A stretch of 44,354 nt of DNA from Vectrevirus LF31P3, in sequence record OZ035776.1; one strand, 5' to 3'. How positions within the stretch are numbered: the stretch's first letter is position 1; each line of letters starts with the position of its first letter. The notes below the pieces were generated by a model. The model had not been told where the DNA came from. It saw only the letters and a list, made by a program, of their open reading frames with translations, and did not search any database. Shown here one piece after another: positions 30 through 39,860 of the stretch. The translations under genes were made by a program, and so were the position numbers.

Positions 30-329
30 GTGAGCGTACACAATAAACATGCAGCTACAGAGGACGAGGTTGGCATTCTGCATGGTGCTATTACCAAAAT
101 CTTCAATAAGAAAGCACAGGCAATACTGGACACTATAGAAGAAGACCCTGATGCAGCATTACATTTAGTGTCTGGTAAGGATATTGGTGCGATGTGTAAG
201 TGGGTTCTTGATAACGGCATTACCGCCACACCTGCTGCACAGCAGGAAGAGTCCAAGTTATCTAAGCGCCTCAAGGCTATCCGAGAGGCATCCAGTGGTA
301 AGATAATTCAATTCACTAAGGAGGATTGA
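30..329 (+). CDS. putative terminase small subunit (T7 gp18-like position)
   Basis: 99-aa ORF with GTG start 5 nt after ggaggga; stop overlaps large terminase start; follows the holin-like ORF at window end in the permuted map. No motif recognised, assignment is positional. Confidence 0.5.
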   Translation: MSVHNKHAATEDEVGILHGAITKIFNKKAQAILDTIEEDPDAALHLVSGKDIGAMCKWVLDNGITATPAAQQEESKLSKRLKAIREASSGKIIQFTKED

Positions 330-2227
330 TGGCTAAGGCAAGAGAATCACAAGCGGAGGCTCTTGCCAGATGGGAGATGCTACAGGAGTTACAGCAGACC
401 TTTCCTTACACAGCGGAAGGTTTGCTTCTCTTTGCAGATACAGTTATTCATAACTTAATTGCAGGCAACCCTCATCTGATTCGTATGCAGGCGGATATCT
501 TGAAGTTCCTATTTTACGGACACAAGTACCGCCTCATCGAAGCGCCTCGTGGTATCGCTAAGACAACACTATCAGCAATCTATACGGTATTCCGTATTAT
601 TCATGAACCGCATAAGCGTATCATGGTTGTGTCCCAAAACGCCAAGCGAGCAGAGGAAATCGCAGGTTGGGTAGTTAAAATCTTCCGTGGCTTAGACTTT
701 CTTGAGTTTATGCTGCCGGATATCTACGCTGGGGACCGTGCATCCGTTAAGGCGTTTGAGATTCATTACACCCTACGTGGCAGTGATAAGTCTCCTTCTG
801 TATCATGTTACTCAATCGAAGCAGGTATGCAGGGTGCTCGTGCTGATATTATTCTAGCGGATGACGTAGAGTCGATGCAGAATGCTCGTACGGCAGCGGG
901 CCGTGCCTTGCTTGAGGAACTGACTAAGGAGTTTGAATCTATCAACCAGTTTGGGGATATCATTTACCTTGGTACACCTCAGAACGTAAACTCTATCTAC
1001 AACAACCTACCTGCTCGTGGTTACTCTGTTCGTATCTGGACTGCGCGTTACCCTTCAGTAGAGCAAGAGCAATGTTATGGCGACTTCCTTGCACCTATGA
1101 TTGTTCAAGATATGAAGGACAACCCAGCACTTCGCTCAGGGTACGGGTTGGATGGTAATAGTGGTGCACCTTGTGCCCCTGAAATGTATGATGATGAAGT
1201 CCTGATTGAGAAGGAAATCTCTCAGGGTGCTGCTAAGTTCCAGCTTCAGTTCATGCTTAACACTCGCATGATGGATGCTGACAGATACCCATTACGCCTG
1301 AACAATCTAATCTTCACCTCGTTTGGTACAGAGGAAGTCCCTGTGATGCCTACGTGGAGTAATGATTCCATAAACATCATTGGTGATGCACCTAAGTATG
1401 GTAACAAGCCTACGGATTTCATGTACAGACCTGTAGCTCGCCCATACGAATGGGGTGCTGTCTCCCGCAAGATTATGTATATTGACCCTGCGGGTGGTGG
1501 TAAGAACGGAGATGAGACGGGTGTAGCCATCGTATTCCTGCACGGCACATTCATTTATGTGTATCAGTGCTTTGGTGTACCTGGCGGATACCGAGAGTCG
1601 TCCCTGAATCGCATTGTGCAGGCCGCAAAGCAGGCGGGTGTTAAAGAGGTATTCATTGAGAAGAACTTTGGTCATGGCGCGTTTGAGGCGGTAATTAAGC
1701 CGTACTTTGAACGAGAGTGGCCTGTAACTCTGGAAGAGGATTACGCCACCGGACAGAAAGAGTTGCGTATCATTGAGACGCTGGAGCCGCTCATGGCAGC
1801 CCATAGGCTTATCTTCAATGCAGAGATGGTGAAGTCAGACTTTGAGTCGGTACAGCACTATCCGCTTGAACTACGCATGTCCTACAGTCTTTTCAATCAA
1901 ATGTCGAACATAACGATTGAGAAGAACAGCCTCCGGCATGATGACCGCCTAGACGCCCTGTATGGCGCTATACGGCAATTAACTTCTCAGATAGACTATG
2001 ACGAGGTTACACGGATTAATCGCCTCAGAGCGCAGGAGATGCGCGATTACATCCATGCTATGAACACACCTCATCTACGCAGGGCAATGCTATATGGAGA
2101 TTACGGTACTGAGAGAAGAGTGACCAACACTTCCGTAGCGATGCAGCAGCGAGTTTACGGGCAGAACTACCGAAATAAATCGGCAAGCAGAAATACACTT
2201 TCTGCAAGAATTTCAAGGACTTATTAA
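329..2227 (+). CDS. terminase large subunit (T7 gp19-like)
   Basis: About 630 aa; Walker A-like PRGIAKTT; ATG at 329 preceded by aaggagg (the ORF track begins 3 nt earlier at TTG 326); typical position and size. Confidence 0.9.
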   Translation: MAKARESQAEALARWEMLQELQQTFPYTAEGLLLFADTVIHNLIAGNPHLIRMQADILKFLFYGHKYRLIEAPRGIAKTTLSAIYTVFRIIHEPHKRIMVVSQNAKRAEEIAGWVVKIFRGLDFLEFMLPDIYAGDRASVKAFEIHYTLRGSDKSPSVSCYSIEAGMQGARADIILADDVESMQNARTAAGRALLEELTKEFESINQFGDIIYLGTPQNVNSIYNNLPARGYSVRIWTARYPSVEQEQCYGDFLAPMIVQDMKDNPALRSGYGLDGNSGAPCAPEMYDDEVLIEKEISQGAAKFQLQFMLNTRMMDADRYPLRLNNLIFTSFGTEEVPVMPTWSNDSINIIGDAPKYGNKPTDFMYRPVARPYEWGAVSRKIMYIDPAGGGKNGDETGVAIVFLHGTFIYVYQCFGVPGGYRESSLNRIVQAAKQAGVKEVFIEKNFGHGAFEAVIKPYFEREWPVTLEEDYATGQKELRIIETLEPLMAAHRLIFNAEMVKSDFESVQHYPLELRMSYSLFNQMSNITIEKNSLRHDDRLDALYGAIRQLTSQIDYDEVTRINRLRAQEMRDYIHAMNTPHLRRAMLYGDYGTERRVTNTSVAMQQRVYGQNYRNKSASRNTLSARISRTY

Positions 2228-3863: not shown

Positions 3864-3892
3864 TACATAGCTTTATATATCAGTGTCTTACG

Positions 3893-3915
3893 ATTTACTG
3901 GACACTATAGAAGAG
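3893..3915 (+). promoter_or_regulatory. phage RNAP promoter (atttactggacactatagaagag), +1 G at 3910
   Basis: Full match to the most common promoter variant; upstream of the tailspike genes. Confidence 0.8.
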
Positions 3916-3994
3916 GTAAGATAGCGCCGTTCTTTTGAGCGGCCTATTACTAGCCAATCTTCATGGTGAGGGTTGGAAAGTAATAGGAGGTTTA

Positions 3995-5887
3995 ATGGCA
4001 AGATTAACTCGCCCTGTTAGTGTATTTAATAGTCTGATGGATATTACTTACCCATGCTCCACTGATGGTGGTAAAGCGGAACTACTACAGGTTATACCCG
4101 GACGTATGTCTGGTGGTGGTATCCTACTTTGGGACGCCAGTATGCCTCAGTCCAATCATAATGGTATTACCATCCTCAGCCCTGAAGCTAAATGGGATGG
4201 TACTCTAGAAGGTTTTAAGGCCTATAGGGAAAGTGGAGGGACTGGCAATGGTTGCTGGGTTCGACCACGCAAAGGTACTGATCTGATGGCATCTTGGGCT
4301 GGTGTTGACACAGACGGGGACTGGATTGCGGATGAGCCACTTATGGCGCTGTGTCAGATTGCACATACACAACGTCGTAATATACGCATAGACTCTGGTG
4401 CTGTCATTCGTTGCGGTTTCACAACTCCGATTTCTCAGCAAGACAAGCACAACATTCTATCTCAAACATCTTTTGTATTACGTGGTTTAAAGAACTTCTC
4501 CATATATGCTGAGCAAGATGCAGAGATAACCACAGACCACCCTGTACATCGTGAGCGTACAGTATTCTTCTTGGACGGTTGCGATAAGGTTACAATTTCT
4601 GGTCTTAAGTTTAATTCTGATTTCAGCGATTATTCTTTCGAACCTAATAGTCCCTATGAGCACCATATCAATGAACACTGGTTAGGTGTAGTTGCAGAGG
4701 CTTGTGGTACTGTTGAGGTTCGCAGATGTAGGTTCAATGCACCTCAGTTTGCTGTAAAGGCCGACTGTTTTAATAGAACAGACGGTAGGTGGAATGACAC
4801 AGTTGCAGTAAAAGATTGTTTCTTCCAGTATGCTACAAACTATTGCTTTTTATCACGTAAGTTACGACATTACATCTTCTCTGATAATGAAGTAAGATTT
4901 AATGGACGTAAGTGGCATACATATGGAGAGGCTTGTGCCCCTACTACCTATACTGAGAATCAGATTATCACTCGTAACCGTTTCATAGATCAGATTGCTG
5001 GTCAAAGCTGTATAACTCCTGGTTCTTATGCTAAGCAAGTACTTATTTCAGATAACTTCTGTCAACGTAGTAATGGTATCTTTGTTGAGATAGGCAGTGC
5101 TAGTAATATTAATATTCTTAACAACGTCTCCAAATCTACAGGTGAACGCATCGTCCACGGAAGTGATAAGTATGCAGGAACTACACACATCCTTCTAGTA
5201 TCTGGGGCAGTTGATGATGAACCTGCTGGTGGGCTAAGTAATATCTTGATTCAAGGTAATAACTTCCAAGGCGGTGGTTATGCTTTACAAGAGTACAATA
5301 CAGGCATTCCTATTCGTCGCGGGTTGGATATTCTTAATAACCACCTTGTAGACTGTATTCCACCAGCCTGTACTAACCAATCCTTTAAGTATATTAGGGT
5401 AGAAGGTAACTACATCCAAGCACCGGATGATTACCCAGATATGACTATTGGAGGTCAACACTCTATTATCAAGGATAATGTCCTTATCGGTGTGCGATTG
5501 AGGGCTAGAGATTTAGGTTATACTGTTGTAGGGTTAAAAGTAATAGGTAATACTTTTACTGCAAATAGTGTAGCATCTAAGTTCCCTGCACTGATAGACT
5601 ACACTGATCTAGAAGATCTTGAAGCTTATGACAACGCAGCAGGTATTCAGGCATCTTATGATAGCTTTATAGTAGCACCTGATAACTGTAATAAAATTAG
5701 CTTTATGAAAGTCGGTATGGTTGAAGGTTTTACACAGACACCAGCAGTGGTTTATGGTAGTAAGTTGCAAGGCCAGAAGGCAGGTGCGATTGTTGGCAAT
5801 AGTGCACCTGGGTCTGTACATGGTTGTGCTGCATTCGTGAGTACTTCTAGTGGTGGTTGGGGTTTTATAAACTACGTTCCCGCATAA
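3995..5887 (+). CDS. tailspike protein 1 (probable polysaccharide depolymerase, beta-helix type)
   Basis: 630 aa after terminase/lysis genes as in SP6-like phages; ATG at 3995 preceded by aggagg; Asn/Gly/Ser-rich repetitive sequence consistent with a parallel beta-helix. No named catalytic motif recognised. Confidence 0.55.
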   Translation: MARLTRPVSVFNSLMDITYPCSTDGGKAELLQVIPGRMSGGGILLWDASMPQSNHNGITILSPEAKWDGTLEGFKAYRESGGTGNGCWVRPRKGTDLMASWAGVDTDGDWIADEPLMALCQIAHTQRRNIRIDSGAVIRCGFTTPISQQDKHNILSQTSFVLRGLKNFSIYAEQDAEITTDHPVHRERTVFFLDGCDKVTISGLKFNSDFSDYSFEPNSPYEHHINEHWLGVVAEACGTVEVRRCRFNAPQFAVKADCFNRTDGRWNDTVAVKDCFFQYATNYCFLSRKLRHYIFSDNEVRFNGRKWHTYGEACAPTTYTENQIITRNRFIDQIAGQSCITPGSYAKQVLISDNFCQRSNGIFVEIGSASNINILNNVSKSTGERIVHGSDKYAGTTHILLVSGAVDDEPAGGLSNILIQGNNFQGGGYALQEYNTGIPIRRGLDILNNHLVDCIPPACTNQSFKYIRVEGNYIQAPDDYPDMTIGGQHSIIKDNVLIGVRLRARDLGYTVVGLKVIGNTFTANSVASKFPALIDYTDLEDLEAYDNAAGIQASYDSFIVAPDNCNKISFMKVGMVEGFTQTPAVVYGSKLQGQKAGAIVGNSAPGSVHGCAAFVSTSSGGWGFINYVPA

Positions 5888-5893
5888 TCACAA

Positions 5894-5916
5894 GGCAGTG
5901 CGTAAGCACTGCTTTT
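5894..5916 (+). terminator. hairpin with GNRA loop (GTAA) followed by TTTT between the two tailspike genes
   Basis: 8-bp stem, loop gtaa, then tttt; possible attenuator. Confidence 0.45.
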
Positions 5917-5972
5917 CACGTAACTTTTCTTAAAGGTTATCATGGTGGTAGCCTTTCAGAAAAGGAGGTTAC

Positions 5973-8156
5973 ATGCTTCAAAGATTAGGGGCAATGTTTG
6001 TTCGGTACAAAAATAAAGTAGGTAATGCTATCGAGCGTACACTACAAAGTAAATTACAGGATGTAGTAAGTGTAAAGGATTATGGCGCTATTGGTGATGG
6101 AGTATATCGTTCACTTGGTGCTAAATTTACCACGTTAAGTATGGCACAAGTAGTATACCCGCATGCGGAAAGTTTAACTCAATCGCAAGATTGGGCGGCT
6201 ATTCAGGCTGCACTTAATTCTCACTCAAAAGTGTACATTCCAGCAGGTAAGTACATGCTATCTGATACCATTGAGATGCGCGGCGGTCAAACTCTGCAAG
6301 GTGACGGTATTGATTCTTGGGTTGCAGGTTATGCTGGGTTTGTAAAAGATAATCAAGGCACTCACCTCATAATGGTGGGAGAGGGAAATAAGAAGTATAC
6401 ATTAGATCATGTATCTAACTTCGATGTAGAAGGTGGTGTCATAGACAACCCAGCTAAGGGTGACGCTTATACTGCCACTGCACCTTCCCCTAATTACTCA
6501 TTTACTGACTTCACTAATGCTAACGCCTCTGGTGCACAACGTGCTACATTGAAACATTTCAGTGTAGCATTACGTTGCACAGGTCACGGTGGTGTTTATC
6601 TTCGTGACTTCCGTATTGTGCCTAATCACAGAGGGCAAGAAGGTTATAAGGATGAGTTGTCAACTGCATTAGGGGACGCATGGGATGTAGGTATTTGGCT
6701 GGAGAATACATCTGACTCAGTGTTATCTTCTGTGCAAGCAGTAGGTTACTGGCGCATTGCAGGTGTTATGAAGACTTGTATACCACAAGAGGGTTCCTTT
6801 GTTGGTGGAGATCGTGATAGGGTATACAATTGCACATTACAAGGTTATCGTGGCTTCTTAGCACGTTCGCATGATACTTACCAAGTAGAAGAAGTATCAG
6901 GTAACACTGTATCGATTAAGTGGTCTGCATCTCACACTTTCGAACCTTCTGGTAAAGTTCGTATCCAAGGGAAAGACCGTAGTTATACTAGCCTGTCTGT
7001 ATCTGGTGACAAATTAGTTTTCAATGGTATTGACGATGTATCAGGTATTAATACCAATAGCTATGTGAGAGTTTCAGGGTCTTCATTCGGAATGTCTGCT
7101 ACTCAACTAAATAACACATACATCGCTGCATTAAACCATCATGCTCGCTTGCCAGCAACCTCTAACCTTTTAGATAATGGGTTTGTTACTTCGGCAGCTT
7201 GCTATGAAGTTGCAGGTGAACCAATTCGTGCCATAAAATTATCTAACTGTACTGTCATTACTTGGGATGACATCTTAGGTATGACTGGTGGTATTCGGGA
7301 CTTCCAGACGACAGATACTTACTTCGAGTCTCAGCCTTTCCGTACTTCTGTGCAAGGCTTGGCAAGCACCACACAACCTGCTGGTTCTCGCATGATTGCA
7401 CTTCGTGGACGTCAAGGTTCTAAAACTACAGGCTATCAAGCTATCGGTTGTACTTATGGGCCAGGTGTAGACCTAAGCCCTCGTTATGAAAGCGATGTAT
7501 CTCGTTACACAACTTCCGGTGGTATGTTCAATCCAAGAGAAGATTTGAACACAACTAAGCAGTTACCAATGAGGCAAGACGCTACTGAGCTATCTTCTAC
7601 TTCTGACTTATTCCTTACACATGCTGCAGGTGGGAAGGCCTATGTTGGCGCTACCTCTGGTGATGCAACGCTTCAATCTAGAACTGGATCATTGAATATC
7701 CAATCAGGACTTCGTGTACGCATTGGTGGCACTGATGGTAGTGGTTGGTACATTGCTGACAGTGCTAAGTTGACACCTACTGCTGACAATGCAAGGGCTT
7801 GTGGACAGCCTAATGGACGATGGACTGTTGTCTATGCTGTTAATGGTACAATCCAGACTTCTGATGGTAGATTCAAGGAAATCCTTGAGATTGAACAGGC
7901 AGAACTTGATGCTGGTCTTGAATTATCAGCAAACCTAATTAAGTATCGGTGGAATGGGGAAGATAAAATTCACTTTGGTTGCATAGCACAAGAAGTGATG
8001 TTAATACTGGAGAAACATGGCCTAGACCCATTACAATATGATATGGTTCAGTATGATGAGGAGGCAGACATCTTTGGGGTAAACTATGCTGAACTCAACA
8101 GCTTCTGTATTGCAGCATTATCGAGGAAGTTAAATGCCATTAATCAGATCAGTTAA
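5973..8156 (+). CDS. tailspike protein 2 with C-terminal intramolecular-chaperone (peptidase S74-like) domain
   Basis: N-terminal VKDYGAIGDG motif (pectate-lyase/beta-helix tailspike signature); C-terminal SDGRFKE ... GCIAQEV resembles the autoproteolytic chaperone domain of endosialidase-type spikes; aaggagg before ATG. Confidence 0.75.
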   Translation: MLQRLGAMFVRYKNKVGNAIERTLQSKLQDVVSVKDYGAIGDGVYRSLGAKFTTLSMAQVVYPHAESLTQSQDWAAIQAALNSHSKVYIPAGKYMLSDTIEMRGGQTLQGDGIDSWVAGYAGFVKDNQGTHLIMVGEGNKKYTLDHVSNFDVEGGVIDNPAKGDAYTATAPSPNYSFTDFTNANASGAQRATLKHFSVALRCTGHGGVYLRDFRIVPNHRGQEGYKDELSTALGDAWDVGIWLENTSDSVLSSVQAVGYWRIAGVMKTCIPQEGSFVGGDRDRVYNCTLQGYRGFLARSHDTYQVEEVSGNTVSIKWSASHTFEPSGKVRIQGKDRSYTSLSVSGDKLVFNGIDDVSGINTNSYVRVSGSSFGMSATQLNNTYIAALNHHARLPATSNLLDNGFVTSAACYEVAGEPIRAIKLSNCTVITWDDILGMTGGIRDFQTTDTYFESQPFRTSVQGLASTTQPAGSRMIALRGRQGSKTTGYQAIGCTYGPGVDLSPRYESDVSRYTTSGGMFNPREDLNTTKQLPMRQDATELSSTSDLFLTHAAGGKAYVGATSGDATLQSRTGSLNIQSGLRVRIGGTDGSGWYIADSAKLTPTADNARACGQPNGRWTVVYAVNGTIQTSDGRFKEILEIEQAELDAGLELSANLIKYRWNGEDKIHFGCIAQEVMLILEKHGLDPLQYDMVQYDEEADIFGVNYAELNSFCIAALSRKLNAINQIS

Positions 8157-8280
8157 GCAAAGTGCTGTACGCCAGAACACAGAAGAGCTTATTCAATCAG
8201 GACGTGACCCTAAGCAGGCTTATGCCATTGCCAAGGATATACAACGTCGTACCTTGAAGAAACCTTCTGCATCTTCTGCG
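8134..8280 (+). CDS. small basic ORF (48 aa), hypothetical
   Basis: gagg near ATG, overlaps tailspike 2 stop; weak evidence only. Confidence 0.25.
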
Positions 8281-9250
8281 TAAGCAGATTAATATCTTAG
8301 TGTACACAAGGGCAGACTTATGCTAGCTCACAGCACACCTATGAGTGCCGCTCTGGAGTCTATGACTTGTTCCCTGACTATCTAGGTTTGCTCTTAGTGT
8401 ATTCCAAAGGAGGTAACATGCAAGAGGAGAATTGGGATGTGTAATGTTGGATATGGAGAAGGTTGAACCTTAGTGTTGTACAAGGATTAACCAAAGTCAA
8501 AATTTTGATATAGGCGTGTGTCAGCTCTCTCGCCCTCGCCCTCGCCGGGTTGCCCCCATATGGGGTCGGTCGGCGGTTGACCTAGGAATTGGGCTGGGCG
8601 GGTCCGTCTTCAACCTGCTGCCGCAGGAAGCTCGACGGGTGGGCGAGGGCTTGCCTTGTACTCGCTTAGTGGTACACAAGGAGAGCGCCTAGGAAGCGCT
8701 AGGGCGCGCCTTAGTATTAGACAAGGTGATTGCCTTAGTTCAACCGCTTAGGGCTTACACGGGCCGTTTTAGGGCCACTCCTGAGCGTTTGACAGGGTGT
8801 GAGGGTGTGGGCTATCTGTTTGTTTCGTCGCTGGCGCTCCTCACTTCGTTTCGCTAGCGCTCCACTCACAAGCCTGACGTGTACCTTAGTTACTACCTTA
8901 TGCTATTACTTGATGGATAGCTTAGGTTAAACTTAGTGGACTACCTTAGTTAAAGCCTTAGTGCTTATCTTAGTAATAGCTTAGTAGTGTACCTTAGTAA
9001 GTCTTAGTGTCTTCTCTTAGTGATTGCACATGCAAGCATGTAAGATGCCATTAGGTCGCGGTCGGTAGACCGCTAAAGAGAGAGAATAGTAATAAGATGC
9101 AGTAGGAGGGACACCAGAAACCTAGCCAACCTAGCCTATCCTAGCTCTGTATCTATTGCTTTTCCTTAGTCTCACATGTTAGACAACCTAGGTTTACCTT
9201 AGTAGTTGTGACATGTATCACATAAATAATCTATCTTAGTGAAACTTAGT
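8280..9250. repeat. terminal-region short-repeat arrays (CTTAGT core, about 20 copies; densest 8880..9030)
   Basis: Repeated (c)cttagt(g/a) units in an ORF-free region between the last late gene and the first early promoter; analogous to repeat arrays near T7-group genome ends. Confidence 0.6.
8526..8650. repeat. GC-rich inverted-repeat element
   Basis: cgccctcgccctcgcc (8531..8546) is mirrored by gggcgagggc (8641..8650) about 100 nt away; internal palindrome ccccatatgggg; markedly more GC-rich than surrounding sequence. Confidence 0.5.
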
Positions 9251-9251
9251 G

Positions 9252-9280
9252 TTGACACCGACAATCAACAGGTATACATT
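9252..9280 (+). promoter_or_regulatory. host sigma70-type early promoter (TTGACA-N17-TACATT)
   Basis: Perfect -35 hexamer, 17-nt spacer, -10-like TACATT; upstream of first early ORFs. Confidence 0.55.
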
Positions 9281-9429
9281 AGCAATCACTGAGATGGACC
9301 TAGCAAGTTGTCTCAGGTTATAAGCAGGAGAATTGATGCGTAAGCCATAGCTAGTGGATGCAGTCGCATGAAGGCTTGAGTAAGGGGCCGTTTAATACCT
9401 TCTTCCTCTGGAGACAACGCTTATAACAC

Positions 9430-9445
9430 CGCTCTTTAACAATTT
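9430..9445 (+). promoter_or_regulatory. boxA-like antitermination element 1 (cgctctttaacaattt)
   Basis: Identical to the rrn-type boxA core GCTCTTTAACAATTT; in early leader. Confidence 0.6.
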
Positions 9446-9501
9446 GCTTAGTGTAACCTATGTATGCCGTGGTTAATTACTTATTGAATGAGGAATTAAC
9501 T

Positions 9502-9597
9502 ATGAATTACGAAGAAATGTACGAAGTTTACTTTAACTCGACTGATGAGGGCGAAGAAGTCTTGTCTTATGCTGAGTTTGTGGAGGCTTTATCATGA
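9502..9597 (+). CDS. small acidic early ORF (31 aa)
   Basis: gagga before ATG; ATGA overlap with next ORF. Confidence 0.3.
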   Translation: MNYEEMYEVYFNSTDEGEEVLSYAEFVEALS

Positions 9598-9759
9598 TTC
9601 TGAATAACCGTGAATTGTCCATTCTCTTCACTCTGTTATGCTACATGATTCGTAACAACGAATTACTTACAGATGACGAGTTGGCACTGTATCACCGCTT
9701 TATTAACGAAGGTTGGACCGATACAGTTAATCAATACCGTAACATGATAGATGAGTTGA

Positions 9760-9770
9760 GGGGGGGGGGG
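9760..9770. repeat. G11 homopolymer
   Basis: Eleven consecutive G read directly. Confidence 0.9.
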
Positions 9771-9772
9771 TT

Positions 9773-9982
<210 letters not shown>

Positions 9983-9987
9983 AAATA

Positions 9988-10212
9988 ATGTATCAACATG
10001 AGGTATTCTTTGAATCAGCTAGCGAAGCTATTCGCTTCCGTGATGATATGATGCAAGCTGGTGTAGGCGTTGATGTGTATCACTATTTGATAGATTACGA
10101 CACTGAATATCACCGAGTTACCTTAGTATCTGAGTATGACAACCAAGTCGTTACTGAGTATCTAGGCAGTGAAGATTACGATTACGATGAAGTAATCACG
10201 ACAAATCTCTAA
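9988..10212 (+). CDS. small acidic early protein (74 aa, D/E/Y-rich)
   Basis: ATG at 9988; intact copy of the duplicated unit. The track ORF 9790..10212 would prepend a polyproline stretch translated from the C tract. Confidence 0.5.
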   Translation: MYQHEVFFESASEAIRFRDDMMQAGVGVDVYHYLIDYDTEYHRVTLVSEYDNQVVTEYLGSEDYDYDEVITTNL

Positions 10213-10220
10213 ATTAACTG

Positions 10221-10249
10221 TTGACAGCCACGGCATACAAGGTTACATT
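10221..10249 (+). promoter_or_regulatory. host sigma70-type early promoter (TTGACA-N17-TACATT), second copy
   Basis: Same architecture as 9252..9280. Confidence 0.55.
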
Positions 10250-10281
10250 AAGCATCAAGACGGCGACGTCTTTAAACATCC

Positions 10282-10297
10282 CGCTCTTTAACAATAT
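10282..10297 (+). promoter_or_regulatory. boxA-like element 2 (cgctctttaacaatat)
   Basis: Preceded by hairpin aagacg-GCGA-cgtctt (10257..10272, GNRA loop), i.e. boxB-like stem-loop then boxA. Confidence 0.6.
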
Positions 10298-10340
10298 GGT
10301 TTGTGTCTTGATAGGCTAACTAACTAACTAAGGTAATTAT

Positions 10341-12386: not shown

Positions 12387-15014
12387 ATGCAAGACCTACA
12401 CGCTATTCAACTTCAACTTGAAGAAGAAATGTTTAACGGCGGTATCCGTCGCTTTGAAGCGGACCAACAACGCCAGATTGCATCCGGTAATGAATCAGAC
12501 ACGGCATGGAATCGCCGCTTATTGTCCGAGTTAATCGCGCCAATGGCTGAAGGTATTCAGGCATACAAGGAAGAATATGAAGGCAAGCGAGGCCGTGCAC
12601 CACGTGCATTGGCTTTCATTAACTGCGTAGAAAATGAAGTGGCAGCGTATATCACGATGAAGATCGTAATGGATATGCTTAACACTGATGTAACCTTGCA
12701 AGCTATCGCTATGAATGTAGCTGACCGCATTGAGGACCAAGTACGTTTTAGCAAGCTGGAAGGTCACGCCGCCAAATACTTTGAGAAAGTTAAGAAGTCA
12801 CTTAAGGCAAGTAAGACTAAATCATATCGCCATGCGCACAACGTAGCGGTCGTGGCTGAGAAGTCAGTAGCTGACCGTGACGCTGATTTCTCTCGCTGGG
12901 AGGCGTGGCCTAAAGATACCTTGCTACAAATTGGTATGACCTTGCTAGAAATACTGGAAAATAGTGTATTCTTCAATGGTCAGCCTGTCTTTCTTCGCAC
13001 CTTGCGCACTAATGGTGGCAAGCATGGCGTTTACTACTTACAGACTAGCGAACACGTGGGTGAATGGATAACTGCATTTAAAGAGCACGTAGCTCAGCTC
13101 AGTCCTGCCTATGCACCTTGCGTTATTCCTCCGCGTCCGTGGGTTTCTCCGTTTAATGGTGGCTTCCATACTGAGAAAGTAGCAAGCCGTATTCGTCTGG
13201 TAAAAGGCAACCGCGAGCACGTCCGTAAGCTGACCAAAAAGCAAATGCCAGCGGTTTACAAGGCTGTTAACGCCTTACAAGCTACTAAGTGGCAGGTTAA
13301 CAAGGAAGTATTGCAGGTAGTAGAAGATGTTATTCGTCTAGACCTCGGTTATGGTGTACCTTCCTTTAAGCCGCTCATTGACCGCGAGAACAAACCAGCT
13401 AACCCTGTACCTCTTGAGTTCCAACACCTGCGAGGCCGTGAACTGAAAGAGATGCTTACGCCAGAACAGTGGCAAGCCTTCATCAACTGGAAAGGTGAAT
13501 GTACCAAGCTGTATACCGCTGAAACTAAGCGCGGCAGCAAGTCGGCGGCAACCGTTCGCATGGTCGGGCAGGCCCGTAAATACAGCCAGTTTGACGCAAT
13601 ATACTTCGTGTATGCACTGGACAGCCGCTCACGCGTTTATGCGCAATCTAGCACACTCTCACCGCAATCAAATGACTTAGGCAAGGCGTTACTACGCTTT
13701 ACCGAAGGGCAGACCATAAACAGCACTGAGGCGCTTAAGTGGTTTTTGGTGAACGGGGCGAATAACTGGGGTTGGGATAAGAAAACTTTTGACGTGCGTA
13801 CCGCTAACGTGCTGGATGGCGAATTTCAAGACATGTGCCGCGACATTGCAGCCGACCCGCTGACCTTCACTCAATGGGTAAATGCCGACTCCCCTTATGG
13901 CTTCCTTGCATGGTGCTTTGAATATGCGCGTTATCTGGATGCACTGGATGAAGGCACGCAAGACCAATTCATGACGCACCTACCCGTCCATCAAGACGGC
14001 AGTTGCTCTGGTATCCAGCACTATAGCGCGATGTTACGCGATGAAGTAGGTGCGAAAGCAGTAAACCTTAAGCCTTCTGACTCCCCTCAAGATATTTATG
14101 GCGCGGTTGCGCAGGTTGTTATCCAGAAGAATTACGCCTACATGAATGCAGACGATGCAGAGACTTTCACATCTGGAAGCGTCACACTTACAGGTGCAGA
14201 ACTGCGTAGCATGGCTAGTGCGTGGGATATGATAGGAATCACTCGCGGATTGACCAAAAAGCCCGTAATGACACTACCTTATGGCAGCACACGTCTAACC
14301 TGCCGTGAATCAGTGATTGATTATATCGTTGATTTGGAAGAAAAAGAGGCCCAACGAGCTATTGCGGAAGGGCGTACCGCCAATCCTGTACATCCTTTTG
14401 ATAATGACCGTAAGGACAGCCTGACACCTAGCGCAGCTTATAACTATATGACAGCTTTAATCTGGCCTTCTATTTCGGAAGTGGTTAAAGCTCCTATAGT
14501 GGCAATGAAAATGATTCGTCAGCTTGCCCGTTTCGCAGCTAAAAGGAATGAAGGCTTAGAGTATACCTTGCCTACTGGCTTCATCTTGCAACAAAAGATA
14601 ATGGCGACAGATATGCTCCGCGTATCTACTTGCTTGATGGGAGAAATCAAGATGAGTCTACAGATTGAAACGGACGTAGTGGATGAAACGGCTATGATGG
14701 GCGCTGCTGCTCCTAACTTTGTGCATGGTCATGATGCCAGCCACCTTATCTTAACAGTCTGCGACCTTGTTGATAAAGGGATTACATCTATCGCAGTCAT
14801 TCATGATTCTTTCGGTACTCACGCAGGCCGTACAGCCGATCTACGTGATAGTCTAAGGGCAGAAATGGTGAAGATGTATCAAGGCCGTAATGCCCTGCAA
14901 AGCCTGTTAGATGAGCATGAAGAACGCTGGTTAGTAGACACCGGAATCCAAGTGCCAGAGCAAGGAGAGTTTGACCTTAACGAAATCTTAGTATCTGACT
15001 ATTGCTTCGCATAA
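12387..15014 (+). CDS. single-subunit DNA-dependent RNA polymerase (T7/SP6 type)
   Basis: 875 aa; recognisable phage RNAP motifs ([22 protein letters not shown]); N-terminus resembles SP6 RNAP as recalled. Confidence 0.95.
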
Positions 15015-36912: not shown

Positions 36913-39860
36913 TGGCAATTGAGCGACAAGCAGTACAAGGTCTGCCACAAGTGCAGGCCACTTCTCCTAATGTCATGACCTTTGCACCTCAGCGAGTTGG
37001 AGGTGTGGAGGCTGGCGTAGCTTCTACCTCCGGTAGTCGATTTATCGAAGACCTTATTCGAGCAGCCAGTAGTGTAGCTGATGTAACCACTGGTATCCTT
37101 AATCAAAAGATTGAGGAAGATAAGGTTGTTCAAATGGAACGGGCATATAACGGATTAATGCCTTCTGAGGATGCAACTCGTGGTGGCGCTCGTGCTAACA
37201 TGCTTGTCAAAGCTCAACTGCTAGCTAATGATGAAGCAGCACGAATGAAAGACATGGCTACTCGTTTCCAAGGAACGGATGACGAGTGGACACAACTTAT
37301 GGTTGACTCTCGTAATGAGATGCAGAATAAGCTGTTCCAGCAATACCCTGAGTTGCAAGGTGACAAAGATACTATGCGTATGGTCACTAATGTCTTCCAA
37401 GAACAGCAGCCTCAGATTTGGGCTACACGAACCCAGCATAAACTTGACCGTGAACAAGCAGACCGTGAGGATACCTTTGACGGGCGAGTGGCTTCTACTT
37501 GGGATTCTAATATTGACCCTGAAGCCTCTGGCTATGCTTTACAGGAACGAATCCGCGAAGGTCTTACTCAAGGATTACTACCTGAACAGATGCACAAGAA
37601 GTTAGTCCAGCGAGCAATTTCACTTGCACAAGGCGGTGATGTTAGCATGGCTGAAGCCCTGAAGTATGTGAAGGACGATAAGGGTGTTTCTGTTTATGCT
37701 AAGAATCCACAGCTTATCACAGCCATCACTAGTGGTAATGCAGTTTGGGCTAGGAATAATGTAGCTGATGTAACTCGTATGTCTTTCGAAGTTAAAGAAT
37801 CCTACCTTGCAGGTGATTTAACTGATGAAGAATTGTTGGAACGAGCACAGCACATTAATAATCTGACAGGTAACTCTGTCTTCTCTAATCCAGAGCTAGA
37901 GGCACTGATGCGCCAACGGGCTAAGCAGAATGCAGAGCTAGGTGCAATGCAGGATATGCGACGTGAGCTTTACTCCGACCGCCTGACTGGCTTCCAAGGT
38001 AAGACTGATAAAGAGAAGAAGGCTTACATTGATGTTATCAAACAGGATAGCCAACTTTATGCAGACCAGCAAATCAAACAACGTGGCTTGGACCCTTACA
38101 GTCAAGAGGCTGAAGCTATTCGTGGTGCAGTGGAAGTGCAGCGCCTGCAATTCATGAACTCCAAAGGCTTAGTGGATGATACCTTTGAGTCTCGTATCAA
38201 AGCCATGGAATCTATGCTATCGCCTGAGCACTTTGCCAAGGGCGAACCACAGGAGTTGATGACTATTCGCCAGTTGTGGGAACAGTTGCCAGAAGAGAGC
38301 CGAGGTGTCTTTGGTGACACGGTGAATGGCTACATGGATAACTACAACACTGCACTACAAATGGGAGAGACACCTTTGCAGGCTGCAAGGTTTGCGCGTG
38401 AAGCACAGCAGAAATTCTCTCGTACTGAGAAGGAAACCAAGAAGTTCAACTCAGCTATTGGAGATGCACTGGATGAGGTATCTGGTGCTGGCTGGTTTGA
38501 TGGTAAAACCGAAGTGTCAGACTTAGGTAAAGCTATTGCGGAAGAAGAGTTACGAGCTAAGGCCAATATGTTGTGGTCTAGTGGTATGCGTAACATGGAT
38601 TCTATCAAGAAGGCTTTAATTACTTGGGGCAATAAACGCTACACTCAATCAGAGGATGCAAAGACTTCCGGTGGCTATTTCATTAAAGGTGATTACACTT
38701 CTGCATCTGATATGCTTATGTCAGTTGGGAAAGGCGTAAACCCTACCGATGTACCTCTGGCGCTTGGTAGGTATGTAGAAACACAGATGCCAGAATTGAA
38801 GAAGGAGCTTCAAGAGTGGGAAACTAAAGATGATATATACATTGATTACAATGAACAGAAAGGTACTTTCGTGATTCGTGCTGGTGCAGCAGGTCGCCCT
38901 CTTTCTGGAGTAATCCCTGTAACCTCTTTAGATACCACTTCACTACTAGATTCTGCCTATCAGAAGAAAGTAGAGGAACGAGATAAAGGCGAGTATGTTC
39001 ACCCGTATCGTACAGATATTGGTGCACAAGAGCCTATGCCAGCTAAACCAACTGCCAAAGATATTGGTAAATTTGGACTAGCTAACTTCCTCATGTCTTC
39101 TGCTTTTGCTTCTGGCGAGAATCTGCCTTCTAACTTCGAGATTAACTACCGAGGTAATATGCAACAATTCTATGACAAGCTAGCTATGGATGAGAATAAA
39201 GATAAAGTTGGCTTTAATAAGGCAACTGGAACCTTTACTCCATATAAAGACGCTCACGGTGAGTCTATCGGTTACGGTCATTTCTTAACGGAAGAAGAGA
39301 AGCGAAACGGGTATATTAAGATTGGCGATGAACTAGTTCCCTATCGAGGGTCTATGTCTCAGCTTACAGAGAGCAAGGCTCGCGCTCTTATGGAGCAAGA
39401 TGCTAAGAAGCATGTGCCTCCTACTCGTGACTGGAAGATTCCGTTTGACCAGATGCACCCTGCACAGCAACGTGGCTTGATGGATTTAAGCTACAATTTA
39501 GGTAAAGGTGGAATCCAGAACTCACCGCGTGCTCTTGCTGCATTCAAAGCTGGTAAGCTTACGGAAGGCTTTATCGAAATGCTGGGCACTGCATCAAGTG
39601 AAGGTAAGCGTATTCCTGGTCTACTGAAGCGACGTGCTGAGGCATACAATATGGCATCTGCTGGTGGTGTGCCTAAGATTACCGAAGTGGAGACTCGTGA
39701 AGATGGCTCCATGTGGGTTAGGTTTGGTGGACCTATGCCAGCAGGTTCTGTCTCGGCCTGGACTCATAAACGTATTGGCGCGGATGGTTGGTATCAGGTT
39801 TATGAGTCTGCACCTACCAAGTTAGCTAAAGGTTCTAAGGTAGGTAAAGTTAAGTTGTAG
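36912..39860 (+). CDS. internal virion (ejection) protein with T4-lysozyme-like (GH24) domain
   Basis: C-terminal segment YKDAHGESIGYGHFLT ... GLLKRRAEAYNMA parallels the T4 lysozyme active-site region YKDTEGYYTIGIGHLLT. Confidence 0.75.
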   Translation: MAIERQAVQGLPQVQATSPNVMTFAPQRVGGVEAGVASTSGSRFIEDLIRAASSVADVTTGILNQKIEEDKVVQMERAYNGLMPSEDATRGGARANMLVKAQLLANDEAARMKDMATRFQGTDDEWTQLMVDSRNEMQNKLFQQYPELQGDKDTMRMVTNVFQEQQPQIWATRTQHKLDREQADREDTFDGRVASTWDSNIDPEASGYALQERIREGLTQGLLPEQMHKKLVQRAISLAQGGDVSMAEALKYVKDDKGVSVYAKNPQLITAITSGNAVWARNNVADVTRMSFEVKESYLAGDLTDEELLERAQHINNLTGNSVFSNPELEALMRQRAKQNAELGAMQDMRRELYSDRLTGFQGKTDKEKKAYIDVIKQDSQLYADQQIKQRGLDPYSQEAEAIRGAVEVQRLQFMNSKGLVDDTFESRIKAMESMLSPEHFAKGEPQELMTIRQLWEQLPEESRGVFGDTVNGYMDNYNTALQMGETPLQAARFAREAQQKFSRTEKETKKFNSAIGDALDEVSGAGWFDGKTEVSDLGKAIAEEELRAKANMLWSSGMRNMDSIKKALITWGNKRYTQSEDAKTSGGYFIKGDYTSASDMLMSVGKGVNPTDVPLALGRYVETQMPELKKELQEWETKDDIYIDYNEQKGTFVIRAGAAGRPLSGVIPVTSLDTTSLLDSAYQKKVEERDKGEYVHPYRTDIGAQEPMPAKPTAKDIGKFGLANFLMSSAFASGENLPSNFEINYRGNMQQFYDKLAMDENKDKVGFNKATGTFTPYKDAHGESIGYGHFLTEEEKRNGYIKIGDELVPYRGSMSQLTESKARALMEQDAKKHVPPTRDWKIPFDQMHPAQQRGLMDLSYNLGKGGIQNSPRALAAFKAGKLTEGFIEMLGTASSEGKRIPGLLKRRAEAYNMASAGGVPKITEVETREDGSMWVRFGGPMPAGSVSAWTHKRIGADGWYQVYESAPTKLAKGSKVGKVKL

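Follow-up and report, generated by a model that had tools for sequence, protein, structure and literature searches.

A GC-rich segment of the Vectrevirus LF31P3 genome as the probable left part of a collapsed, T7-type terminal repeat

Main

The sequence record OZ035776.1 of Vectrevirus LF31P3, analysed here as one window of 44,354 nucleotides, is a complete K1E-like genome of the SP6 supergroup in circularly permuted form, its two ends abutting at K1E positions 37061 and 37078. A GC-rich segment at positions 8526–8650 had been singled out in a first-pass annotation as a discrete element bounded by inverted repeats. We find that it is very probably best explained as the left part of a direct terminal repeat (DTR) that has collapsed to a single copy in this permuted, K1E-like genome, the ends of which would be formed by T7-type concatemer processing, by analogy with the known systems. 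On this evidence the segment is an ordinary feature of an already described kind, the terminal repeat of T7-type phages.

Results

A single repeat copy at the genome junction

The right end of K1E (44820–45251) aligned to positions 8383–8814 of LF31P3 and the K1E left end (1–1223) to 8528–9760; because these two alignments overlap over 8528–8814, we take that overlap to be the DTR (Table 1), with a left boundary uncertain by approximately 2 nt (8526–8530). Homology to both ends of end-defined relatives was collinear, the overlap coinciding exactly with the repeat, and the repeat sequence occurs in OZ035776.1 as a single copy, mid-genome. Collapse of a DTR into the middle of a contig is documented assembly behaviour (PMC10438801), and the DTR of a related SP6-like phage has been mapped by run-off sequencing (PMC4837284). 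Sequence comparison identifies the GC-rich segment as the left 123 bp (around 40–43%) of a DTR of approximately 287 bp and not as a discrete element, and position 8650 is no true right boundary, as it falls inside a variable spacer of the DTR.

Both boundaries recur in relatives with defined ends. The first base of the segment (8526–8528) coincides with the left end of five such phages, which bears out the expectation that physical ends or a terminal repeat would be found here: the left end lies within 2 nt of 8528 in SP6, K1-5, K1E, mutPK1A2 and RoP3a alike, megablast placed position 1 of the K1E, KAW1A4500 and mutPK1A2 records at 8528/8529, and K1E and LF31P3 are identical from −30 to +21 about the left cut. 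The right boundary, ...GTGGGCTA immediately before TCTGTT, is identical in the same five phages (5/5). The physical ends of LF31P3 DNA are accordingly predicted, from homology. Exact DTR lengths are 288 bp in K1E, 286 in mutPK1A2, 283 in RoP3a, 234 in K1-5 and 174 in SP6; the mutPK1A2 repeat is annotated as a 'redundant repeat' in its record, and 'redundant repeat', 'terminal repeat' or an unlabelled repeat_region is annotated in mutPK1A2, RoP3a, T3, gh-1, KP34 and Era103.

In the alignment, SP6 begins 2 nt before the K1E-type start and K1-5 2 nt after it. Deposited left ends are up to 4 nt apart among relatives, for which method or biology may account.

The segment is gene-free, as originally described, with the last conserved gene (phrog_2423) ending at 8283 and the next ORF starting from 9460. 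It also lies, as proposed, after the last late gene and before the early promoters, an early promoter-like site being at 9252.

Table 1 Features of the terminal-repeat junction and related machinery in OZ035776.1
Feature	Position	Strand	Basis or remark
T7-type small and large terminase genes	30..2227	+	Pfam DNA_Packaging_2 (3e-16), Terminase-T7_RNaseH-like (1.6e-35)
Last SP6-type phage promoter upstream of junction	3889..3916	+	PWM scan
Conserved right-unique flank AACCAAAGTCAAAATTTTGATATAGGCGTGTGTCAGCTC	8483..8527	+	Just left of repeat
Predicted physical left end, 5'-TCTC, two overlapping TCTC	8526..8531	+	Record starts of relatives
Direct terminal repeat (DTR), one collapsed copy, 287 bp	8528..8814	+	Homology to K1E ends
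Tandem hexamers GCCCTC-GCCCTC, then GCCGG	8532..8548	+	Includes left inverted-repeat arm 8532-8541
C-run/ATAT/G-run palindrome (C)CCCCATATGGGG	8553..8565	.	Local form of CCCC-RTAG motif
Variable GC-rich spacer	8566..8650	.	Indels versus K1-5- and SP6-type repeats
Right half of DTR with CTTAGT-type short repeats at 8665, 8710, 8734	8665..8760	+	
Right-terminal block TTGACA-(AGGGTGTG)x2-GGCT-ATCTGTT-TGTTTC	8789..8826	+	DTR ends at A8814
CTTAGT short-repeat array, left-unique region	8885..9250	+	Analogous to T7 CCTAAAG arrays
Best candidate early host promoter TTGACA-17-TACATT	9252..9280	+	10/12 consensus, pattern match only
Single-subunit phage RNA polymerase	12387..15014	+	Pfam RNA_pol (9e-90), RPOL_N (1.5e-31)

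A conserved left end

Sequence conservation is concentrated at the left cut. The flank from about −45 to −1 is nearly invariant in 21 SP6-group sequences and holds a perfect AT-rich palindrome, TCAAAATTTTGA, at 8497–8508, 20–31 nt left of the cut; T7 has TTTAAA at −32 to −27. The repeat itself starts with TCTC, a terminus also found in T7, T3, K1F, K30, SP6 and K1E, and its first 40 nt or so (TCTC, two hexamers, GCCGG and C-run/ATA(T)/G-run) are nearly invariant. Tandem Repeats Finder (TRF) reported a period of 6 in three copies at 8529–8546, and across 18 SP6-group loci the hexamers are invariant save for a concerted GCCCTC/GGCCTC switch that affects both copies and is never mixed. The suggestion that the segment carries a packaging or concatemer-processing signal is accordingly kept for these first 40 nt, which are best read in that way, but not for a 125-bp element bounded by inverted repeats.

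Within this left module, the internal palindrome CCCCATATGGGG is exact and occurs once, at 8554–8565, as first reported; perfect 12-nt palindromes are not rare per se, with 15 genome-wide against approximately 11 expected. Its loop varies in relatives (ATA, ATAT, TAT or GTA), and in T3, K1F and phiKMV the CCCC-RTAG motif is not palindromic. What recurs is the position: in 10 of the 13 Autographiviridae examined, the CCCC-RTAG core begins 25–29 nt inside the left end, compared with a genome-wide frequency of 5–9e-5 per nt. Carriers include T7, T3, K1F, gh-1, phiKMV, KP34, Era103, SP6 and K1E, the repeats of which are otherwise unalignable.

A GC-rich spacer that evolves freely

The GC content of 8526–8650 is 0.696 compared with 0.451 for the genome (125-nt windows: mean 0.451, s.d. 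0.055), confirming the impression of a GC-rich segment; the sole other place at such a level, 9820–10042, is a poly-C artefact. Elevated GC is common to all 25 SP6-group repeats examined (mean 0.61) and plausibly stabilizes annealing of the repeat or the terminal duplex. The segment is 86–98% identical to close relatives.

Both strings given as the bounding inverted repeat occur once, CGCCCTCGCCCTCGCC at 8531 and GGGTGGGCGAGGGC at 8637, and their truly complementary core is a perfect 10 bp formed by GCCCTCGCCC (8532–8541) with GGGCGAGGGC (8641–8650). A 10-bp match arose between the two 25-nt edges in 8 of 20,000 shuffles and anywhere in the segment in 31 of 3,000. The repeat is therefore real and above chance in this genome, but it is lineage-specific and does not delimit an element. 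Its left arm occupies the same site in every relative; the right arm decays, being found only in OZ035776.1, L014, T147P1, LI10P3a and T205P4, and the inverted repeat as a whole is absent from K1-5- and SP6-type repeats. Among 13 close relatives 6 of its 10 pairs are broken and none shows a compensatory change; because it decays in close relatives without compensation, it is not a conserved stem.

The spacer, of some 85 bp, is largely missing from SP6-type repeats and differs from K1-5- and SP6-type repeats by indels of 26, 22, 28, 16 and other lengths. It holds a nested hairpin in LF31P3 (CCGTC at 8604–8608 with GACGG at 8634–8638, around CCTGC at 8614–8618 with GCAGG at 8623–8627); spacer hairpins are conserved but invariant and so yield no covariation. 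Overall the GC-rich spacer evolves freely.

We also considered covariation between the hexamer type and an internal inverted hexamer (GCCCTC with GAGGGC, GGCCTC with GAGGCC, and G·U variants) and rejected it on systematic counts: among CC-type repeats an inverted copy of the same type was present in 10 of 20 and of the opposite type in 7 of 20, with neither in 9 of all 25 repeats. In these repeats the sequence that best complements the terminus was inconsistent in position, mostly not above shuffles, and often the repeat's own right end, GTGAGGGTGTGGGC.

The right edge and the short-repeat arrays

The right half of the DTR is conserved in the K1E and K1-5 groups, and the right-terminal block is nearly invariant in 15 junctions, with ATCTGTT itself invariant. 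This motif, at 8813–8820 (T-ATCTGTT) and followed by a T-rich tract, matches the class II pause and termination consensus HATCTGTT (PMC11347151). It is the sole sense-strand copy in OZ035776.1; K1E has a second one inside its RNA polymerase gene, so the motif is not strictly excluded elsewhere. For the invariant TTGACA at 8789–8794, a scan for sigma-70 promoters gave no match, the sole −10 at 18 nt being TATCTG (3/6).

The short repeat CTTAGT is concentrated around the junction, with 20 of 34 genome copies in 8280–9480 (16.7 per kb compared with 0.32 per kb elsewhere), all in one orientation with 0 reverse-complement copies. TRF detected arrays at 8892–9021.

Machinery for transcription and packaging

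LF31P3 encodes a T7-type terminase pair, the genes having 92.8% nucleotide identity to K1E genes 39/40A, and a single-subunit RNA polymerase that is presumed to be the reader of the ATCTGTT signal. A PWM scan found 13 phage promoters, all on the + strand, with none in 5900–9700, and no terminator-like site was predicted in 7900–9700. Given the last promoter at 3889 and no predicted terminator before the repeat, read-through of 3935–8283 into the repeat is plausible.

Alternative readings of the segment

The bounding repeat and inner hairpins might instead act as DNA in this lineage, for example as a single-strand fold-back that primes or protects the end during repeat duplication. This is improbable, although it has several points in its favour. 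The low shuffle frequency of the perfect 10-bp repeat, given above, is joined by a DNA fold with z = −2.1, and a hairpin intermediate is reported for T7 concatemer processing (PMC4281155, which cites Chung and Hinkle 1990). Different hairpins stand at the same position in relatives (CCGTC-TTC-GACGG, a version of this stem whose loop is GGA, and, in L027, GTACTAG-TTAA-CTGGTAC), and in EcoP_C the inner hairpin is exactly flipped. However, the outer repeat is missing or disrupted in the majority of relatives, whose ends must still be processed, SP6-type repeats have nothing of this part, and there are no compensatory changes. The T7 hairpin, moreover, presumably forms left of the repeat and not inside it, which also counts against the fold-back.

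Still less likely is a structured RNA, whether a stable 3' end of late read-through transcripts or a regulatory RNA, with the bounding repeat as its closing stem. The segment is probably transcribed through read-through, its RNA fold of −66.2 kcal/mol (z = −2.3; 3 of 200 shuffles as good) uses the bounding stem in the minimum-free-energy structure, and some variant right arms pair on the sense strand only via G·U. Comparison among relatives nonetheless led us to reject this reading, which the first-pass annotation had offered. Rfam at E ≤ 1 across 8000–10300 gave no match besides a chance snoRNA outside the segment. In the consensus that RNAalifold derived from 13 relatives the bounding stem does not appear, and the covariation term is −0.32 kcal/mol; explicit counts found 0 of 24 pairs changed on both sides, with a covariation score reached by all 500 shuffles, so that the search for covariation returned 0 compensatory pairs. 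The bounding helix is 78.5% paired over the relatives, its broken pairs being simply lost, K1-5- and SP6-type repeats lack most of the segment owing to large indels, and the complement to the terminus behaves no better, as described above.

That a foreign or mobile remnant (MITE-like, flanked by terminal inverted repeats) was inserted at this end of the genome could be suspected from a GC content 25 points above the genome, the inverted repeats at the edges and the spacer indels between relatives, but is effectively refuted. The segment is a single copy in its genome and does not have the marks of a MITE or foreign insertion, and a nucleotide search retrieved it from 79 phage records, all of SP6-group relatives and all at the same position; 5,426 complete E. 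coli genomes and 72,556 plasmids (distant mode) gave no hit, on which ground we rejected a host or plasmid origin. GC-richness is shared by the whole set of 25 repeats, and the left 'terminal repeat' arm is the most conserved, functional-looking part of the genome end.

Equally hard to credit is a protein-coding segment like K1E 'gene 48' (44868..45083), which extends 120 nt into the right-hand repeat copy: a 58-codon open frame with a GTG start (8516–8692) spans the segment and a 71-codon ORF is annotated there in K1E, but neither ORF belongs to a PHROG family, the start codon of the K1E ORF is TTG and the frame is closed over its upstream part in OZ035776.1, stop codons are expected to be missing from GC-rich sequence, and indels of 1, 7, 16, 20, 22, 26, 28 and 29 nt within the ORF among relatives disrupt the frame where they are not multiples of three, so that we rejected this candidate.

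Discussion

The preferred reading, a collapsed DTR whose left part is the GC-rich segment, places LF31P3 beside the Molineuxvirinae K1E, mutPK1A2, K1-5 and SP6, with which it shares the position of the repeat, the left terminus, the hexamers, the C-run/ATA/G-run and the right boundary. It differs from them in having a single, mid-assembly copy of the repeat in a permuted record, and in that the spacer carries the perfect 10-bp inverted copy of the terminal hexamers common only to LF31P3, L014, T147P1, LI10P3a and T205P4.

T7 and T3 show the same arrangement at a greater distance: a non-coding direct repeat that separates the last late gene from the early promoters, a 5'-TCTC end, a C-run/ATA/G-run approximately 26 nt inside it, ATCTGTT at the right edge, flanking oriented arrays of short repeats (CCTAAAG in T7, CTTAGT in LF31P3), and genes for a T7-type terminase pair and a single-subunit RNA polymerase. 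In the T7 record the DTR is 160 bp, starts with TCTC and has CCCCCATAGGGGG at 26–38 and ATCTGTT at 161; in T3, as in T7, ATCTGTT stands at DTR+1. Outside these shared motifs, however, nothing is alignable, and compared with T7 the LF31P3 repeat is longer and much more GC-rich (0.61 versus 0.52).

By this analogy, T7-type concatemer processing is the most likely mechanism. Replication would yield concatemers with one repeat copy between adjacent genomes, as in T7 and T3. Late transcription from the promoter at 3889 would cross the repeat, and pausing of the phage RNA polymerase at T-ATCTGTT would mark the right edge, where a T7-type terminase recruited to the pause site would cut the right end. 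The conserved flank and the left module would direct another cut or nick, placed 5' of TCTC at approximately 8528; the CCCC-RTAG core, at a fixed distance of around 26 bp inside the left end, lies within the module that would direct this cut and is a candidate for a role in it. Copying of the repeat would then leave both daughter genomes with one.

The pausing step draws on the class II terminators of T7 RNA polymerase (PTH, VSV, rrnB T1 and CJ). Their HATCTGTT core recurs exactly in LF31P3, again in the non-template strand and with a T-rich tract behind it (T-ATCTGTT-TGTTTC). The resemblance is one of motif, with a putative function, and the T-run of LF31P3 is interrupted. In T7 CJ an interrupted T-run leads to pausing rather than efficient termination (PMC11617373). 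Pausing of an SP6/K1E-type RNA polymerase at ATCTGTT is putative, no test of it being found in the literature searched. LF31P3 also has no phiOR-like promoter just upstream of the repeat and no homologue of T7 lysozyme (gp3.5) that tblastn could detect (best E = 0.017 over 26 aa); both accessories are features of T7 itself and not of the class, and their absence marks how the LF31P3 mechanism may differ from that of T7.

For annotation, the OZ035776.1 assembly is permuted and one repeat copy short: the true genome should start at approximately 8528 and be around 287 bp longer, roughly 44.6 kb including a poly-C artefact near 9886.

More broadly, the distant SP6/K1E group shows the same three landmarks that end formation leaves in T7, namely the TCTC end, the internal C-run/RTAG and the ATCTGTT at the right edge. 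We tentatively raise the idea, which we consider more doubtful than not, that C-run/RTAG is a family-wide left-end signal that forms, with the AT-rich palindrome some 25–30 nt outside the end, a bipartite recognition site of fixed distance. No description of such a left-end signal was found in the literature searched; the signal may nevertheless be known already, for example within T3 pacB. If the idea is right, the bipartite site might serve the final left-end cut by the terminase, or retain the last-packaged end in the portal or tail channel. The fixed distance of C-run/RTAG across Autographiviridae subfamilies is the only part of these findings worth more work, as a candidate signal for left-end cleavage or retention.

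The GC-rich segment is the left part of a terminal repeat

The GC-rich segment with bounding inverted repeats and an internal palindrome described in the first-pass annotation is present: it begins TCTCTCGCCCTCGCCCTCGCCGGGTTGCCCCCATATGGGGTCGG and ends GACGGGTGGGCGAGGGC, its GC content is 0.696 compared with 0.451 for the whole window (125-nt windows: mean 0.451, s.d. 0.055), a level matched at just one other genome site, and the strings quoted for it occur once each, at 8531, 8637 and 8554. Its two 25-nt edges share a 10-bp complementary core, a match reached in 8 of 20,000 shuffles. Perfect 12-nt palindromes are not unusual alone in the window (15 observed versus around 11 expected), and the fold z-scores of the segment are modest (−2.1 as DNA, −2.3 as RNA).

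The window is a complete genome in circular permutation, starting near the small terminase gene, because its long ORFs all lie on the + strand, it has 13 SP6-type promoters (consensus ATTTACTGGACACTATAGAAG) and encodes a single-subunit RNA polymerase (RNAP) and a T7-type terminase pair, megablast with 8200–9500 matched 136 phage records (mostly Escherichia Vectrevirus), and it is collinear with the whole K1E genome at 85–97% identity. The last base of the window corresponds to K1E 37061 and base 17 to 37078, so the two ends abut. The large terminase gene is uninterrupted in the window, whereas in K1E it is split into 40A/40B by an insertion of around 750 bp with a putative homing endonuclease (gene 40.5); at this site, window 1495/1496, the aligned K1E position skips from 38556 to 39303.

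Position 1 of the K1E, mutPK1A2 and KAW1A4500 records aligns to window 8528/8529. The right end of K1E aligns to 8383–8814 and its left end to 8528–9760, and their overlap is the direct terminal repeat (DTR), present in the window as a single copy; collapse of DTRs into the contig interior is documented for short-read assemblies of T7-like phages (PMC10438801). Comparing both ends of each record gave exact DTRs of 288 bp (K1E), 286 bp (mutPK1A2, annotated 'redundant repeat'), 234 bp (K1-5), 174 bp (SP6) and 283 bp (RoP3a); repeats of 179–428 bp, one run-off-sequenced, are reported for other SP6-like phages (PMC4837284, PMC6563267, PMC5543629). In all five of these relatives the left end lies at most 2 nt from TCTC/TCGCCCTCGCC and the right boundary falls exactly at ...GTGGGCTA/TCTGTT. 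By homology, the segment corresponds to the left 123 bp of a K1E-like DTR, starting at the physical left end. The leading reading of the first-pass annotation, a genome end or terminal repeat with a processing signal, was right, and the segment is a known feature, correctly observed. Its start, 8526, is the SP6-type end; 8650 matches no boundary.

Features of the repeat region and of other loci discussed in the text
Feature	Window position	Content
Large terminase gene	326–2227	
Last gene	8134–8283	matches phrog_2423
AT-rich palindrome in block (a)	8497–8508	TCAAAATTTTGA
58-codon ORF	8516–8692	
GC-rich segment	8526–8650	
DTR	8528–8814	around 287 bp
Terminal hexamers	8532–8543	
Bounding repeat core	8532–8541 with 8641–8650	10 bp
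Inner hairpin 1	8604–8608/8634–8638	CCGTC/GACGG
Inner hairpin 2	8614–8618/8623–8627	CCTGC/GCAGG
Block (a)		conserved; around 45 nt of right-unique flank up to the cut
Block (b)		conserved; first ~40 nt of repeat: TCTC, two hexamers, GCCGG, 3–4 nt, C-run/ATA(T)/G-run
Block (c)		conserved; last ~45 nt of repeat: TTGACA-(AGGGTGTG)x2-GGCT-ATCTGTT
Perfect TTGACA	8789–8794 (region 8789–8818)	
Class II signal	8813–8826	T-ATCTGTT-TGTTTC; last base of repeat, A8814
G12 run	9760–9771	
Degraded copy of following sequence	9772–9885	around 115 nt
Poly-C run	9886–9982	around 97 nt, broken by A, G, G

Conserved blocks enclose a variable spacer

Alignment of 15 junctions, 21 left flanks and 13 K1E-type elements delimited three conserved blocks, (a) to (c). 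The stretch between (b) and (c) is variable and indel-rich, and K1-5- and SP6-type repeats lack the 26-nt block that follows the palindrome and the greater part of 8566–8650. Judged from these alignments, the segment is a conserved end module of around 40 bp, after which comes a GC-rich spacer that evolves freely. GC-richness itself is a property of the SP6 group, in which 25 distinct repeats have a mean GC of 0.61 versus around 0.45 for the genomes.

The terminal hexamers are either both GCCCTC or both GGCCTC, with mixed pairs at 0 of 18 SP6-group loci; mixed forms are present in unrelated GC-rich contigs matching the same search pattern. They change in concert between the two forms across the window and relatives (L008, L015, L025, L037 and L046), which suggests that slippage or conversion homogenizes them, or that they are recognized as a repeated unit. 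Separately, CTTAGT occurs 20 times in a single orientation within 8280–9480 (16.7 per kb versus 0.32 per kb elsewhere), with copies flanking the repeat on either side and others within its right half, and these arrays mirror the CCTAAAG arrays of T7.

The inverted repeats are not maintained as a stem

The segment had also been taken as a discrete element bounded by inverted repeats, or possibly a structured RNA; neither idea is supported. The right arm GGGCGAGGGC is limited to the window and the relatives L014, T147P1, LI10P3a and T205P4, with GGCTGAGGG, GGCTGAGGT, GCCTAGAGC and similar variants in other close relatives. The position of the best complement to the terminus is not consistent, and its match is mostly no better than in shuffles; an internal inverted hexamer tracking the terminal hexamer type was rejected by systematic counting. 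RNAalifold on 13 sequences did not recover the bounding stem (covariation term −0.32 kcal/mol), and an explicit count found 0 pairs with changes on both sides. In the bounding helix 78.5% of cells are paired and 6 of 10 pairs are simply broken; its covariation score was reached by 500 of 500 shuffles. The bounding repeat does exist in this genome but is not preserved as a stem, and a structured RNA, for which Rfam also gave no match, is not supported.

The two inner hairpins are conserved and invariant, and are uninformative either way because they do not vary. At the same position some relatives have a shorter hairpin, CCGTC-TTC-GACGG, and L027 a different one; in phage vB_EcoP_C the equivalent of 8614–8627 reads CCTGC-GGCA-GCAGG in place of CCTGC-TGCC-GCAGG, of which it is the exact reverse complement, a loop flip of the type that template switching at a palindrome generates. 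These differences are a hint of palindrome-driven turnover, not of a defined structure.

A gene could be read from the 58-codon ORF, comparable to K1E 'gene 48', but neither has a PHROG family, whereas the true last gene does, and relatives carry indels of 1, 7, 16, 20, 22, 26, 28 and 29 nt inside the ORF. The suggestion of a foreign remnant is not supported, with 0 matches in 5,426 E. coli genomes and 72,556 plasmids, and 79 phage records have the segment at this very position.

The sole other GC spike of the genome, 9760–9987, almost certainly arose as an artefact of sequencing or assembly (homopolymer reads): its block of around 215 nt occurs in 0 of 75 related phage records, and the extra copy is 76–78% identical to relatives versus 90–93% for the second copy. 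ORF 9790–10212 crosses the poly-C block as poly-proline. Another probable homopolymer artefact is a run of around 29 T in the metagenomic contig L032 (IMG/VR contig 3300045988_001199), located just upstream of the conserved flank and around 60–90 nt to the left of the repeat.

A probable T7-like scheme for end processing

T7 packaging runs from right to left, and the T7 hairpin lies just left of the repeat. In the sequence records themselves, the 160-bp T7 repeat starts with TCTC, carries CCCCCATAGGGGG at nt 26–38 and is directly followed by ATCTGTT; T3 has the same right boundary. The class II signal for T7 RNAP consists of HATCTGTT with a T-rich tract after it (PMC11347151). According to passages in PMC11347151, bioRxiv 10.1101/2021.01.11.426313, bioRxiv 10.64898/2026.02.12.705533 and PMC3276506 (citing Zhang and Studier 2004), the RNAP–lysozyme complex pauses there and engages the gp18/gp19 terminase, starting maturation and packaging. 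Concatemers hold one repeat copy, whose duplication has to accompany cleavage; a hairpin intermediate was observed as well (PMC4281155; PMC10438801).

Sense-strand ATCTGTT has a single copy in the window genome. The last phage promoter upstream of the repeat is at 3889 and a scan of 7900–9700 found no terminator-like site before the repeat, so late transcription should reach the class II signal through the repeat. Following the T7 scheme, RNAP would pause where the repeat ends on the right and terminase would cut there; blocks (a) and (b) would direct a second cut on the 5′ side of TCTC, and the repeat would be copied. Details could differ from T7, which has a lysozyme and phiOR, whereas a tblastn search of the window yielded no T7-lysozyme homologue and a promoter scan no phiOR-like promoter near the repeat; in K1E, moreover, sense-strand ATCTGTT occurs a second time, at 4580. 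In the literature searched, we found no experiment on whether an SP6-type RNAP pauses at class II signals.

The TTGACA in block (c) is invariant in 24 of 25 SP6-group repeats and is followed 18 nt downstream by TATCTG, a hexamer overlapping the ATCTGTT signal; the pair is absent from the promoter scan output because of its poor −10 match. As the T7 concatemer junction signal itself can work as a sigma-70 promoter (preprint, bioRxiv 10.64898/2026.02.12.705533), it is conceivable that the right end of the repeat holds a first-entering early promoter. In phiKMV, LKA1 and KP34, ATCTGTT is absent at the right edge and a common TGCCT[C/T]T-like sequence directly follows the repeat (CCTTGCCTCTC, TGCCTCTTTTGCC, TGCCTTGCTTATTT); the Era103 boundary is ATCTATCC. 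These may be equivalent boundary or pause signals for divergent RNAPs.

A left-end motif at a fixed distance across the family

The core of the palindrome, CCCC(N)RTA[G/T], starts at nt 25–29 from the left end in 10 of 13 genomes examined (T7, T3, K1F, gh-1, phiKMV, KP34, Era103, SP6, K1-5 and K1E), against a genome-wide frequency of 5–9 × 10−5 per nt. The KP34 motif is identical to the T7 13-mer; K30, LKA1 and Syn5 have a C-run at that place without RTAG. We found no description of the motif in the literature searched, a search that did not extend to the classical papers, and we claim no novelty for it. Because the motif is non-palindromic in T3, K1F and phiKMV (for example, CCCCATAGCCCC), the conserved feature is sequence at a constant distance from the end rather than a hairpin. 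The residual interest, a modest one, lies in this family-wide motif, whose fixed spacing points to protein recognition, either by the terminase during left-end cleavage or by proteins of the portal or tail holding the last-packaged end.
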